29,283 nucleotides of DNA. It comes from Candidatus Pacearchaeota archaeon (lineage in GTDB: Archaea > Nanobdellota > Nanobdellia > Pacearchaeales > GW2011-AR1). The stretch covers positions 1 through 29,283 of the forward strand of contig JAFCEV010000001.1 in assembly GCA_017608985.1 (NCBI GenBank). The letters are read 5' to 3'. The notes beneath the pieces are model-generated. The model saw nothing but the letters and a program-made list of their open reading frames with translations, was not told where the DNA came from and searched no databases. Positions 2,792-7,905 of the stretch are shown here, piece after piece (position 1 is the first letter of the stretch; every line of letters starts with the position of its first letter). The position numbers were made by a program, and so were the translations under genes.

Positions 2792-2962
2792 ATGGAAGAA
2801 GAAAAAAAGTACAATGAAATATCTGCTAAGGATTATGAAGAAAAATCTTTATATGATTCTGACACTATTAAGATGATGGTGGATAATGCAAATAATGGTG
2901 TGATGGATGTTAAAAAGAGTTTGGAAAATATACAGAAGATTAAACAAAAGGCACAAAAATAA
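2792..2962 (+). CDS. Small hypothetical protein, 56 aa (MEEEKKYNEISAKDYEEKSLYDSDTIKMMVDNANNGVMDVKKSLENIQKIKQKAQK); not in the ORF track
   Basis: Translated by hand; GGAG RBS at 2783-2786, ATG 2792, TAA 2960-2962; overlaps the convergent pcm end by 23 nt. Confidence 0.6.
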   Translation: MEEEKKYNEISAKDYEEKSLYDSDTIKMMVDNANNGVMDVKKSLENIQKIKQKAQK

Positions 2963-3549
2963 ATCCATGCAATTCTTTTTTAATCTTAAAATTATCTTTT
3001 TGCCTTTGAATTGCTACTAAAGATTGGCTAAATCTTGAGCCAACAGGAGCTACAATCAAACCTTTATCTTTTAATTGATTTAAAATTTGTTTAGGAATCT
3101 TCTCACATGCTGCACTTATTAATATCCTGTCAAATGGTGCTGCTTCTTTTAACCCCCAATTTTCCATCCCTATTATAAACTTTAATATTTTTATAATCCT
3201 TGATATTATTTTTTGATTTATTTGCTAATTCTTTTACAATTTCAACACCATAAACTTTTCCTTTATTTCCAACTATCCCAGATATTAAAGCCAAAACATA
3301 ACCGCATCCAGAACCAAGTTCAAGAACTTTTTGTCCTGATTTTAAATTCAACAGTTTTAACATTGTTGCAATTGTATATGGTTGGGAAATTGTCTGTCCT
3401 CCTCCAATAGGTAGAGGTCTGTCTTCATATGCTCTTTCTTCCAAATCTTTAGGAACAAAATTCTCCCTTTTAACTTTTGCAAAAGCATTTAATATCTTTT
3501 TTGAAAAGCCTTGATTTTTTAGATGCCCTAATAATTGTGTTTTGTTCAT
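2940..3549 (-). pseudogene. pcm: Protein-L-isoaspartate O-methyltransferase split by a single-base frameshift
   Basis: ORF 3130..3558 carries the PIMT N-half (AYEDRPLPIGGGQTISQP, VLELGSGCGY) and ORF 2940..3167 the C-half (EAAPFDRILISAA, LIVAPVG). Removing one G from the G5 run (plus-strand C5 at 3153-3157) gives one ~202-aa frame from ATG 3549. Confidence 0.85.
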
Positions 3550-3616
3550 TTTAAACAATTTTCACCATCCTTATTAAAATAAAGAAGCGTAATTAAATCT
3601 TTTGTAAAAATAGGAA

Positions 3617-3645
3617 CCCGGCATTGTCCTAAGACCATACCAGGG
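3617..3645 (-). other. GC-rich hairpin (CCUGGUAU-G-GUC-UUAG-GAC-A-AUGCCGGG) followed by a U-tract; terminator, pcm leader or small RNA
   Basis: 8-bp + 3-bp stem with two G-U wobbles that pair only on the minus strand; TATA-like TTTAAATA at 3680-3673 upstream. Confidence 0.4.
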
Positions 3646-3713
3646 ACTTAATAATTATTAAGGTATTACCTCTATTTAAACTTTGACTTGCTTGCCCTCT
3701 TATTTTTTAGAAA

Positions 3714-3794
3714 TTAATCATCATTCCACTCTGGAAGATTTTCCGCATCAACATATTTAAATTCTTCACAAATTTTCAAACTTTCTTCAGCCAT
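3714..3794 (-). CDS. Possible 26-aa acidic micro-ORF (MAEESLKICEEFKYVDAENLPEWNDD)
   Basis: Hand translation; ATG begins 1 nt after the stop of the duplicated smc tail, with GAGG upstream. Confidence 0.35.
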   Translation of the reverse strand: MAEESLKICEEFKYVDAENLPEWNDD

Positions 3795-3795
3795 T

Positions 3796-3911
3796 TTAAA
3801 TCCTCAGACTAATTATCTTTGATATTCCGTCATGCATACAACAAACGTATCTTCGTTTGGAGTCATGCTATATTTTTAAGCTTATAATTTTACTGATTCC
3901 GTCATGCATAC
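3796..3911 (-). repeat. Duplicated smc 3' end: 16-bp identical core ATTCCGTCATGCATAC at 3824-3839 and 3896-3911, followed by synonymously diverged tails
   Basis: 3909-3868 encodes MHDGISKIISLKI*; 3837-3796 encodes MHDGISKIISLRI*. Confidence 0.9.
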
Positions 3912-6750
3912 TTACTCCATAAAGATTTGTTGCATTTGAAATTACTTCATCATTGTGGGTTATTATTATATATTGTCCTTTTTTCATGTATTTATTCAAA
4001 AGAGTTGCAAGTCTTTCTGAATTCCTCTTGTCAAGTGCTGCATCAATTTCATCAAGGATATAAAAGCAATAAGGATTTAACTCTTGTATTGCAAAAATCA
4101 ATGAAAGAGCTACTAAAACCTGCTCTCCTCCTGAGAGGGATTTCACATCAAAATATTTACCGTGTCCTGTCTTGACTGTGATGCTTACTCCTCCTTCAAA
4201 AGGCTCTTTTCTGTTTTCTGGTTCAAGATAAACCTGTCCTTTAGTGCTCAATTGTGAGAAATTCCTTGAGAAAATTTCGTTCAGTTCATCCAGAGTTTTC
4301 AAAAAGGCTTTTCTCTTCTTTATATCAATTTCATGAATAATTTTTAAAATTCCTTGTTTTTCTTTTGTAATAATTTCTGCTTTTTCCCTTACTGAATCAT
4401 ATTCTTTTTTTACAGAATCATAAACCTCTAAACTTCGAAGATTTATTGTTCCTATTCTTGAAAGCAAATCCTGTGTTCTGGATAATCTTTCCACAAGATT
4501 TTCTCTTTTAGTCTTGATTATTTTAATATTATTAAATTCTAACAACTCTGTTTGTAAATTTTCAATGATTGCGTCAAAACGTGCTTTTTCTATTTTCAGC
4601 TCATTTATATCCTGCTCTATATTATGAATTATGTTCTGCTTATTTAAAAGTTCAGATTCTTTATTTCTAATATCTTTTTGAAATTTGTCTTTTTTAAAAA
4701 TCAATTGCTGGAATTCCCTATTTAATTCTTCTTCTTGTTTCTTTTTATTTTTAAGAATCTTTTCTTTATCTCTTATATTTTCTGTAATTTCACTTATCTC
4801 TGTCTCTAAATCTTCTTCCTCTCTAACAACTTGCTTTAAAGAAACTTTTAAACGTTCAAATTCTCTTTGTTTAAATGCAATTTCAGAATCAGTATCTTCT
4901 TCATTTCTAAAAGAAAGTTCCTGAACTTCTATTCTTGCTGTTTCATACTTCTTTTCAATATTTGAATTTTCTTCAAAAGAATCTTCAAGCTTTTTTTTAA
5001 TCTTTTCAAATTCTTTAAATTCCTGCCTTGCTTTCTGAATTTTTTCCTGAATTTCTTTAATCTTTTCTTTTTTCTCCTTTATATTTGAAAGTTTAATTAA
5101 GTCAGATTCTCTTTTTGAAATCTCCTCCTGTAACTGGTTTATATCCTGTTTTAGTAAATCTCTTTTTTTATAAATCTCTCCCAATTCTTCATCTGATTTT
5201 CTTACCTCTTCTTTTAATTTATTTAATCTTGGAAGAGTTTTATCTTTAATTTCACGAATATGTTTTTCTGTTATCTTACTCTTACATATGGGGCAAACAT
5301 CCATTTTGGATATGTTTTCTATTAATTTATTCTCTTTGTCTATCTCATTTTCATTTGCAGAAGCAAGTTTCTCTAATTCTATTTCCTTTTTATTAATGCT
5401 CTCTAAAAGTTCTTTTTTTTCAGATAATGAGATATTTAATGATTTTACGTTTTCTTTATTCGTATTTCTGTCAAATAGTTCTGCATGCAAGGACTTTATC
5501 TGTCTTAACAAAAATTCGGATTCATTTTCATAATTACTGATAAGGCTATTTTTATCTTGAATTCTTTCTTTAATTGATTTTAATTCAGATTTAAGCATAT
5601 AAAATTTCTTTCTCTGTTCTTCTAATTTTTCCAATTCCTGTTTTTTTAATTCAATTTCTTTGTCTCTTATTTCTTTTTTAGAATCCGCTTTTTTAGGTCT
5701 CTTTAAATTTTTAATGTAATTTTTTGCTTCTTCAATATTTTCTTCAAGTTCTTGCTTTTGTTTTAATAAACTGGAATTCTTACTCTCATAATTTTCCAAT
5801 CTTACATTTAATCCTGCTAATTCTGCCCTTAGATCTGCAATTTCTCTGTTTAATTTTTCCTGCTCTAATCCTGTTGATTCCTGAATAGTCTTATTTATAG
5901 AGATTATTTTTGTTTCAAAATTTGAAATAAATGCTTTTATATTTATTATCTCTTTTCTTATTTTATCAATCTCTTTGTTTTTTTTGAATATATTTTCCTC
6001 TATCTTTTCTCTTTCTTTCTCATTCTTTTCCTTGTCATGATTTATAATGCTTGCTTTAAGGATTTGGACATCCTTTTCCAGTTTCTTAAATCTAAGAGCC
6101 TGCTGTCTTTCTTTTTCCAGATTATTGAGATAAATAGTCCTCTCCCTTAAAATTGCTGAAACTTCTTTTAATTTATCCTCTGTTTTTTCAAGTTCTCTCA
6201 GAGATTTTTCTTTTCTTGATTCATAAATTGAAATTCCTGAAACCTCTTCAATTATTTTTCTTCTGTCATCAGGATACATTCTCACAAAATTCTGTATTTC
6301 TCCCTGAAGTATTATATTGAATCCATTAGGGTCAATTCCTGCCTGAGCAAGTAAACTCAAAATCTGCTGCCGTGTTTTTGTTTCATTTTCAATTTTATAA
6401 ATGCTCTGCCCGTTTTTTCTTACAATTCTTTTTATTGAAATCTCATTTTTGTCTATTGAAAAAGTTCTGTCAGAATTATCAAATATTATCTCAACACTCG
6501 CTTCTTTTGCAGGTGCAACTGCCTTTGTTCCCAAGAATATTAAATTTCCTGCTTTTGCTGCTCTCATTGACTTAATGCTCAATCTTCCTAAGACAAAACA
6601 CAGAGCATCTGAAATATTACTTTTTCCAGAGCCATTTGGACCTAAAATTACATTTATCCCCTCTGTAAAAGGGATTTCTGTTTTTCTCGGAAAACTCTTG
6701 AATCCATGCATCACCAGTTTTTTTATATGCAACATGAGGAAGAGAAACAA
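3868..6750 (-). CDS. smc: SMC-family ATPase with condensin-type heads and a central CxxC; likely start ATG 6735
   Basis: GFKSF, Walker A GPNGSGKSN, IILQGEI, signature LSGGE, Walker B/D-loop YILDEIDAALD, long coiled coils, CPIC at aa 486-489. Confidence 0.9.
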   Translation of the reverse strand: MFLFLMLHIKKLVMHGFKSFPRKTEIPFTEGINVILGPNGSGKSNISDALCFVLGRLSIKSMRAAKAGNLIFLGTKAVAPAKEASVEIIFDNSDRTFSIDKNEISIKRIVRKNGQSIYKIENETKTRQQILSLLAQAGIDPNGFNIILQGEIQNFVRMYPDDRRKIIEEVSGISIYESRKEKSLRELEKTEDKLKEVSAILRERTIYLNNLEKERQQALRFKKLEKDVQILKASIINHDKEKNEKEREKIEENIFKKNKEIDKIRKEIINIKAFISNFETKIISINKTIQESTGLEQEKLNREIADLRAELAGLNVRLENYESKNSSLLKQKQELEENIEEAKNYIKNLKRPKKADSKKEIRDKEIELKKQELEKLEEQRKKFYMLKSELKSIKERIQDKNSLISNYENESEFLLRQIKSLHAELFDRNTNKENVKSLNISLSEKKELLESINKKEIELEKLASANENEIDKENKLIENISKMDVCPICKSKITEKHIREIKDKTLPRLNKLKEEVRKSDEELGEIYKKRDLLKQDINQLQEEISKRESDLIKLSNIKEKKEKIKEIQEKIQKARQEFKEFEKIKKKLEDSFEENSNIEKKYETARIEVQELSFRNEEDTDSEIAFKQREFERLKVSLKQVVREEEDLETEISEITENIRDKEKILKNKKKQEEELNREFQQLIFKKDKFQKDIRNKESELLNKQNIIHNIEQDINELKIEKARFDAIIENLQTELLEFNNIKIIKTKRENLVERLSRTQDLLSRIGTINLRSLEVYDSVKKEYDSVREKAEIITKEKQGILKIIHEIDIKKRKAFLKTLDELNEIFSRNFSQLSTKGQVYLEPENRKEPFEGGVSITVKTGHGKYFDVKSLSGGEQVLVALSLIFAIQELNPYCFYILDEIDAALDKRNSERLATLLNKYMKKGQYIIITHNDEVISNATNLYGVSMHDGISKIISLKI

Positions 6751-7707: not shown

Positions 7708-7782
7708 AGCGGGATAGAGCAGCCTGGAGTGCTCGTCGGGCCCATAACCCGGAGGTCGGAGGTTCAAATCCTTCTCCCGCTA
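7708..7782 (+). tRNA. Initiator tRNA-Met(CAT)
   Basis: A1-U72 (AGCGGGA/TCCCGCT), A11-U24, three consecutive G-C pairs in the anticodon stem, loop CCCATAA. Confidence 0.93.
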
Positions 7783-7859
7783 TTCCCAACTCAGCCATTG
7801 AAAAGTCGTCATTGATATCAGAAAATGAGTCGCTTTCCAACAACTTCGCTCCCGCTATT
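7774..7859 (+). repeat. 11-bp direct repeat of the tRNA-iMet 3' end (CTCCCGCTATT at 7774-7784 and 7849-7859)
   Basis: Exact match, 75 bp apart. Confidence 0.7.
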
Positions 7860-7905
7860 TTTCTAATAAAAAACCTTAAAAGTATCAAAAGTTCTTTAAT
7901 TATAT

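Follow-up and report, generated by a model that had tools for sequence, protein, structure and literature searches.

The smc gene of a Candidatus Pacearchaeota archaeon ends twice, its last codons being followed after a short spacer by a second, differently encoded version of the same peptide. This arrangement raises the question of where the additional end comes from, which of the two ends is native to the locus, and whether the DNA between them is the remnant of a larger mobile element or a small element in its own right. The sequence analyzed here (the window) is the whole stretch of 29,283 nt, and the assembly to which it belongs (G000) comprises 476 kb in 50 contigs and is 86% complete.

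The duplicated end of smc

In the window, smc lies on the minus strand (3868..6738) and encodes a protein of 956 aa counted from the ATG at 6738, with the SMC_N domain covering residues 4-949 and a TAG stop at 3868-3870; the ORF upstream encodes RNase HII and is separate from smc. The product has the C-terminus ...YGVSMHDGISKIISLKI, and its last codons read ...YGVS-MHDGISKIISLKI-TAG on the minus strand. This end contains the first copy of a 16-nt core, GTATGCATGACGGAAT (3896..3911, minus strand), which covers the smc codons S-M-H-D-G-I, followed by the part of the in-use tail that lies past the core (..C AGT AAA ATT ATA AGC TTA AAA ATA TAG; 3868..3895, minus strand). On the same strand stands a spacer of 28 nt (3840..3867), a short mini-element of the kind termed type II below, with the composition CATGACTCC-CAAACG/AAGATA/CGTTTG-TT and including a hairpin with a 6-bp stem, CAAACG-N6-CGTTTG (3842-3859). 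Past the spacer, GT-ATGCATGACGGAAT reappears and runs on into MHDGISKIISLRI-TAA (3837-3796, minus strand): the second core copy (3824..3839, minus strand) is the same 16-mer as the first, and the spare tail, ATG CAT GAC GGA ATA TCA AAG ATA ATT AGT CTG AGG ATT TAA or, in translation, MHDGISKIISLRI*, occupies positions 3796..3837 (minus strand), the starts of the two tail copies being 72 nt apart and in the same frame. An ORF of 26 codons, MAEESLKICEEFKYVDAENLPEWNDD (3714..3794, minus strand), has its ATG one base past the TAA of the spare tail, and a 40-aa homologue of this ORF stands after the second smc tail of another locus (L108). Shuffled sequences lead to an expectation of 0 for the 16-mer GTATGCATGACGGAAT in the window, which contains exactly two copies (3896-3911 and 3824-3839); these are also the only two in the complete assembly.

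Beyond the core all 10 codons differ between the copies if the stop is counted, 9 of the differences being synonymous (including TAG/TAA) and one a change from K to R; random placement of the 14 substitutions led to one amino-acid change or fewer in 0 of 2000 trials. An earlier note on this DNA had pointed out a spare smc tail 72 bp downstream, recoded after a 16-bp core, and had argued that a plain tandem duplication is inadequate to account for a peptide that is kept while its codons differ; the former is confirmed in every detail and the latter is supported. The spacer hairpin described in the same note is present as well (3859-3842), and its loop has a counterpart in L149. Natural variants in the stem at 3847 and 3855 both retain pairing as G-T wobbles. 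Rfam and tRNA scans of the window and six element-bearing loci gave no match at the site, and single-sequence folding of the between-tail intervals, window included, gave energies no better than those of shuffles.

The duplicated and recoded end of smc is real and not an artefact of assembly. A chimera fusing the smc ends of two co-occurring strains might be suspected in a source genome that is a fragmented MAG of 50 contigs, and public data do hold a second strain that is arranged differently, but such a fusion would not give rise to a new hairpin spacer of 28 nt, a separate Logan contig also contains the junction, and the same architecture is found in many assemblies from different studies and habitats, all of which makes this explanation very improbable. 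The Logan contig (152 nt, from a public run) covers positions 3778-3929 with 1 difference; the evidence from public runs consists of assembled contigs, and this one is not fully independent as the run may derive from the window's own source sample. A strain ~96% identical over the smc 3' region, represented by contigs from another sample, has the same spacer as the window, with a copy-1-type tail on both sides of it and then another downstream gene.

Some further features of the window and its assembly were recorded in passing. The tRNA-iMet gene (7772-7862, plus strand) ends with ...CTTCTCCCGCTA, followed by an insert of 65 nt and then TCCCGCTATTTTT, the 3'-end repeat being TCCCGCTA; the tRNA 3' end is repeated on the far side of a small insert, which is the syntax seen at smc. 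On contig C48 (~4150-4310; L272:850-1010, minus strand) an RNase H-like gene of 142 aa (RVT_3/RNase_H) has a second copy of its first 10 codons (MIYTNSDGGA) 83 nt upstream, with 5 differences, 5/5 of them synonymous; the spacer of 53 nt holds TTGCACC, which is reverse-complementary to the last part of this head, and the spare head opens a 29-codon ORF that ends just before the real ATG. Contig C19 (L273, minus strand) contains a perfect tandem duplication of ~104 nt near the 3' end of a P-loop-ATPase-like gene (identity from sequence reading), in which the first copy introduces an early TAA (…PIIE*) and the second runs to the longer native end; as the copies are identical and have no insert between them, this is a different phenomenon or an assembly issue. 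A candidate small RNA in the window (~3603-3680, minus strand) is composed of a TTTAAATA box, ~25 nt and then GTCCCTGGTATGGTCTTAGGACAATGCCGGGTTCC with a T-run; it has no Rfam match, and its hairpin CCCGG...CCGGG and upstream box are kept in two other genomes (L261, L244). The PCMT (protein-L-isoaspartate methyltransferase) ORF (2940-3558, minus strand) covers profile positions 2-140 of 210 and, being partial and overlapped by a 75-aa ORF in another frame, is probably frameshifted or affected by a sequencing error. An extra insertion between smc and the PCMT gene, bounded by TTTAAAATG, was considered and rejected because the small ORF located there is conserved downstream of smc in a relative.

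Recurrence at smc and at other genes

A second smc tail occurs 47-100 nt downstream of the first in 3 of the 30 closest genomes searched (G001 and G002, which belong to the same genus, and G036), and G009 carries an intervening element-like sequence at smc without a clear second copy. Among 78 metagenomic smc 3' ends that could be analyzed, 14 have a second tail and some of these a third, and one further metagenomic smc locus contains an array of the intervening repeat. Across ~20 independent smc cases the DNA between the tails measures 27 to ~150 nt and is never an island. The second tail is out of frame in G001 and G002, and the first stop may be TAA, TAG or TGA depending on the case. As for the neighborhood, the gene downstream of smc varies among close relatives (L004-L032, L108-L187) and may be PCMT, a small CopG-like gene or the 26/40-aa ORF; since this variation is seen even in close relatives, the smc stop represents a synteny break point.

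The between-tail DNA comprises at least three sequence kinds. In type I a conserved 28-mer, AYGCTCGCCGACRCAGTCGCTTCGCATA, stands behind a variable hairpin; type II includes short spacers that fit the pattern CATGRCTYY-(often a small hairpin)-TYGT, and type III is a unit of ~90-150 nt with a terminal hairpin plus TTTTAT. The window falls within type II, together with metagenomic L149, whose stem differs from that of the window and whose loop, AAGAT(A), is similar. Type II is a loosely defined group found at smc only, several members of which fold no better than shuffles, and the spacer of the window may be a reduced or a separate member of the element group. It contains neither the 28-mer AYGCTCGCCGACRCAGTCGCTTCGCATA nor the type III motif, and a profile search found no canonical copy of the 28-mer in G000.

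Types I and III are dispersed at other genes. The 28-mer with its preceding covarying hairpin is present in 10 of the 201 family genomes (up to 8 copies) and the type III motif in 27 of 201 (up to 11 copies). Within a species-representative collection the 28-mer was found only in MAGs of Pacearchaeota, Woesearchaeota and Nanoarchaeota and in one labelled "archaeon", often at contig ends, and it had 0 matches on viral contigs. Both repeats have duplicated ends of the upstream genes on either side. The end of a YbjQ-like gene (…AYGTAVKLK*) is duplicated around the repeat in three genomes, the G000 ortholog being an empty site, and other ends duplicated in this way are a gyrase-B-like tail, MVSFFREEIYNLKEKVSLGRSI and MKSVR. 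The right junction is exact: in 11 of the 14 significant cases, 0 nt separate the 28-mer from the duplicated target. On the left the junction varies, and the duplication has a length of 10-70 nt. Tandem [tail+element] arrays occur (L105, L122 (smc), L090, L094), and in most cases the elements share the orientation of the gene. The hairpin before the 28-mer is represented by ~25 stem sequences, with a mean stem of 3.25 bp vs. 2.12±0.26 in shuffles, and compensatory change is seen at two pairs within the 28-mer itself. No Rfam family matches these elements, and word searches of the literature on repeats, hairpins and MITEs of DPANN/Pacearchaeota yielded no account of them. A CRISPR array was also considered and discarded: whole units including the "spacer" repeat, the periods are 44-76 nt and there is no Rfam CRISPR-DR match.

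Two individual loci deserve mention. A hairpin+28-mer unit in L042 (G009:C8:about 3790-3840) lies in frame within a lysine-rich coding region and introduces no stop (…GAKKK-PLRGRSPTQSLRI-KKVVKK…), which resembles the in-frame palindromic elements of Rickettsia. In L245 (G149:C17) a type III unit adjoins the 3' end of the 16S rRNA gene, the rRNA gene being on the opposite strand.

Native tail, rival explanations and a possible route

The relationship between the two tails can be read from their differences. Over 23 tail pairs, 108 codon differences are synonymous and 23 non-synonymous, and most of the divergent pairs are individually significant (P<0.001 under random placement). The view expressed in the earlier note that both copies had been under coding selection agrees with these numbers, as both tails bear the signature. 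The non-synonymous changes in the spare copies fall on invariant residues (MSDR, MHDW, MHNG, MRDG, CKDR); it follows from this decay at otherwise invariant positions that the spare copies are unmaintained once displaced. Divergence within pairs extends from none (L122) through 1 difference (L148, L060) to saturation, and the identical "core" shared by the copies measures from 8 to ~44 nt depending on the case. The synonymous bias combined with the decay of the spare copies argues that the divergent pairs are orthologous tails from different lineages and not one duplication that aged in place, and the variable core length fits crossovers inside the tail, by homologous or homology-facilitated illegitimate recombination of diverged lineages.

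Comparison with element-free relatives bears on which tail is native. The closest of these (80-83% identical over the preceding 300 nt) favor the spare copy in 6 of 9 cases, with 1 tie; the single tail of L113, for example, matches the spare copy at 25/30 positions vs. 20/30 for the in-use copy, and L110, L112 and L116 are similar. The first tails of element-bearing loci are nearer to the in-use copy of the window in 9/9 cases, a likeness to other element-linked tails that is based on 30 nt per locus. In addition, the spare tail retains its junction with the downstream small ORF, as found after the second tail of L108. Judging from the tail likenesses and this native junction, the in-use tail and the spacer are most likely the newcomer and the spare tail is the native end, in line with the earlier suggestion that an element had supplied a replacement end.

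With a probability of roughly 70%, we regard the region as the product of a miniature non-coding piece that inserted within the final 13 codons of smc and that belongs to a group of small elements of Pacearchaeota-like DPANN archaea. This piece would comprise the post-core part of the in-use tail with its TAG stop, together with the hairpin spacer of 28 nt, and the original smc tail would have been left 72 nt downstream as a silent spare that is still joined to the native downstream gene. The group as a whole would consist of structured elements of 27-150 nt, of at least three sequence kinds, that reside at gene ends between two copies of the end.

The earlier note had instead interpreted the locus as the attL/attR scar of a large integrase-encoding element at the smc 3' end whose interior was deleted to 28 bp. 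Identical 16-nt repeats do surround an insert that supplies a replacement end, and a like architecture is known for prophages and islands in the 3' ends of protein genes, for instance e14 and phage 21, whose integration site is icd of E. coli and which bring a substitute end with them. However, the DNA between the tails always measures 27-150 nt, with ~150 nt at most in the ~20 smc cases and at other genes, and repeated, independent shrinkage to hairpin-sized remnants sharing conserved ends is unlikely. No integrase (PF00589) was found in G000, and no mimic of the smc tail was found on viral contigs, where the core 16-mer has 54 matches, about the estimated chance number, none of which is then followed by an smc-like tail. 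As no large case occurs at smc or elsewhere, the element would seem to be small in its normal state and not through reduction, and a scar is improbable. Little more can be said for a local tandem duplication within one lineage with both copies selected as expressed sequences, whether by read-through of the TAG, by splicing of the interval as an archaeal bulge-helix-bulge intron, or as a leader ORF of 13 codons through which translation is coupled to the downstream gene. In the window both copies share one frame and the first stop is TAG, the spare copy opens with ATG and its stop abuts the ATG of the next ORF, and the elements are mostly oriented as the gene; against this, the second copy is out of frame in G001 and G002 and first stops of all three kinds (TAA, TAG or TGA) are in use, spare copies elsewhere are disabled at invariant residues, element-free relatives use a copy-2-type tail directly, and Rfam gives no match. 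Canonical archaeal bulge-helix-bulge motifs have two 3-nt bulges with a 4-bp helix between them, but the 8-9-bp target-complementary duplex formed at these loci is by inspection uninterrupted and appears to leave no space for two such bulges. This explanation is improbable.

Diversity-generating retroelements (DGRs) target C-terminal coding regions beside a hairpin, and reverse transcriptases, many of them DGR-sized, are found in 80/201 family genomes. That the locus is a remnant of such an element, with the in-use tail as the variable repeat and the spare tail as the template repeat, is nevertheless barely credible, given that the mismatches are mixed and adenine-specific in neither copy, that the peptide is conserved and not diversified, and that no reverse transcriptase was found in G000. 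For the genus, an old insertion inherited vertically with repeated loss may also account for the distribution.

Returning to the miniature insertion, the order of events that we infer takes as its starting point what is demonstrated at these loci (anatomy, recurrence, synonymous bias, native copy and exact right junction). An element would initially insert with a long target duplication (10-70 nt), giving rise to identical copies. From there the [gene tail + element] unit would spread to this gene in diverged lineages. Two routes are envisaged: the unit may recombine with the resident gene through a crossover in the conserved opening bases of the tail, or it may integrate site-specifically as a small cassette. 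The outcome would be a donor tail and a resident tail, each selected in its own lineage and differing almost only synonymously, and decay of the spare copy would be the last step. The range of pairs from identical to saturated is as expected from duplication in situ followed by cross-lineage transfer. Within the 3' kilobase of smc, a sliding-window comparison revealed no clear recombination breakpoint, identity climbing toward the conserved head domain in all relatives.

A sequence feature near the first stop hints at structure-guided recombination. The reverse complement (6-9 nt) of the start of the duplicated segment is found within 24 nt from the first stop in 15 of 19 element-bearing smc loci; among 81 single-tail smc loci 0 reach 6 nt and the maximum is 5 nt (Mann-Whitney p = 5e-12). 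The complementary segment follows variants of the target (CACGATG with CATCGTG, GAA with TTC, GAC with GTC), and over all copies of the 28-mer the complementarity is weaker, yet beyond 200 permutations. In the window the segment has only 4 nt, unlike most other smc cases. Pairing of this kind would fold the unit and place its exact 3' end beside the first base of the target.

Relationship to known systems and biological relevance

A search for an enzyme that would move these units, among tyrosine recombinases, reverse transcriptases and Y1 transposases, gave no candidate. Tyrosine recombinase (PF00589) had no match in the 86%-complete G000, and reverse transcriptase and Y1 transposase were not detected there either. 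The Y1_Tnp family is present in 3/10 genomes with the 28-mer and 12/27 with type III vs. 62/201 family-wide, and is absent from G090, an element-rich genome (11 copies); the element does not flank the one Y1 transposase gene of G001 or the partial gene of G219. Reverse transcriptase occurs in 6/10 and 14/27 of these genomes, respectively, vs. 80/201 family-wide, and is absent from the element-richest ones. Neither Y1 transposase nor reverse transcriptase shows a clear association with element-bearing genomes.

As in the prophages and islands that reside in gene 3' ends (e14, phage 21), the replacement end is mostly synonymous, the native end is silent downstream and a short identical core marks the crossover. 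Unlike such islands (15-40 kb, with their own integrase), the insert of the window measures 72 nt and those at other loci at most ~190 nt. Except for the tail the inserts are non-coding, the genome as assembled has no recombinase, and tandem [tail+element] arrays occur. CIMEs are att-flanked, recombinase-less remnants of integrative elements, kilobase-sized and with identifiable parents; the units described here share with them the att-like flanking repeats, the lack of a recombinase and a mobility that could only be provided in trans, but no parent element is seen. They also resemble MITEs, REP/BIME and the Rickettsia palindromic elements in being tens to ~150 nt long, hairpin-forming, multicopy, often located at gene ends and occasionally in frame within genes (L042). 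MITEs are bounded by terminal inverted repeats and have a target duplication that is short and constant in length, whereas the target duplications observed here are variable (10-70 nt) and restore the gene end, and the usual terminal inverted repeats are missing. In contrast to REP-type and IS200/IS605-derived elements, no association with a Y1 transposase or RAYT-type gene was found.

Integron gene cassettes with attC sites include those of archaeal integrons (PMC9668308). The beginning of an integron cassette pairs with the inner core site of attC, and the folding suggested above for the units is formally similar. The units are comparable to such cassettes in that the start of the unit is complementary to a segment after the coding part, the region is structured and variable, and the junction with the next unit is exact; covarying hairpins, structure kept more than sequence and arrays (L105, L122, L090, L094) recall attC, although these features are absent from the window itself. 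Differences are equally evident: by junction inspection the R''/R' consensus RYYYAAC/GTTRRRY is absent and the complementary segments are gene-specific (ATGCATGA/TCATGCAT and others), the "cassette" is only the tail of a gene, and the units are located within ordinary genes and not at an attI platform.

A miniature, non-autonomous gene-end cassette is the best reading of the unit. More tentatively, and at somewhat less than even odds, these units may represent an undescribed class of miniature, non-coding, hairpin-defined "gene-end cassettes" of Pacearchaeota-like archaea, which would carry a substitute gene end, use a complementary segment to set their exact 3' end, insert and excise by means of an enzyme that we infer to be of the host or trans-acting and other than a classical integrase, and pass between species at the same gene, with smc as a hot spot (~one locus in six).

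The arrangement illustrates how little cargo, namely the few dozen bases of a substitute tail and a hairpin, is enough to render insertion into essential genes harmless, and it occurs repeatedly in some of the smallest cellular genomes, which are poor in recognizable mobile-element enzymes. It also explains why contig breaks and "orphan" C-terminal fragments are met with when these MAGs are annotated. Should the units prove truly mobile, they would embody a new, tool-like principle, namely a structure- or guide-directed insertion that repairs its own damage. In that case they would also serve as markers of DNA passing from one DPANN lineage to another and would give rise to breaks of synteny at the ends of genes.
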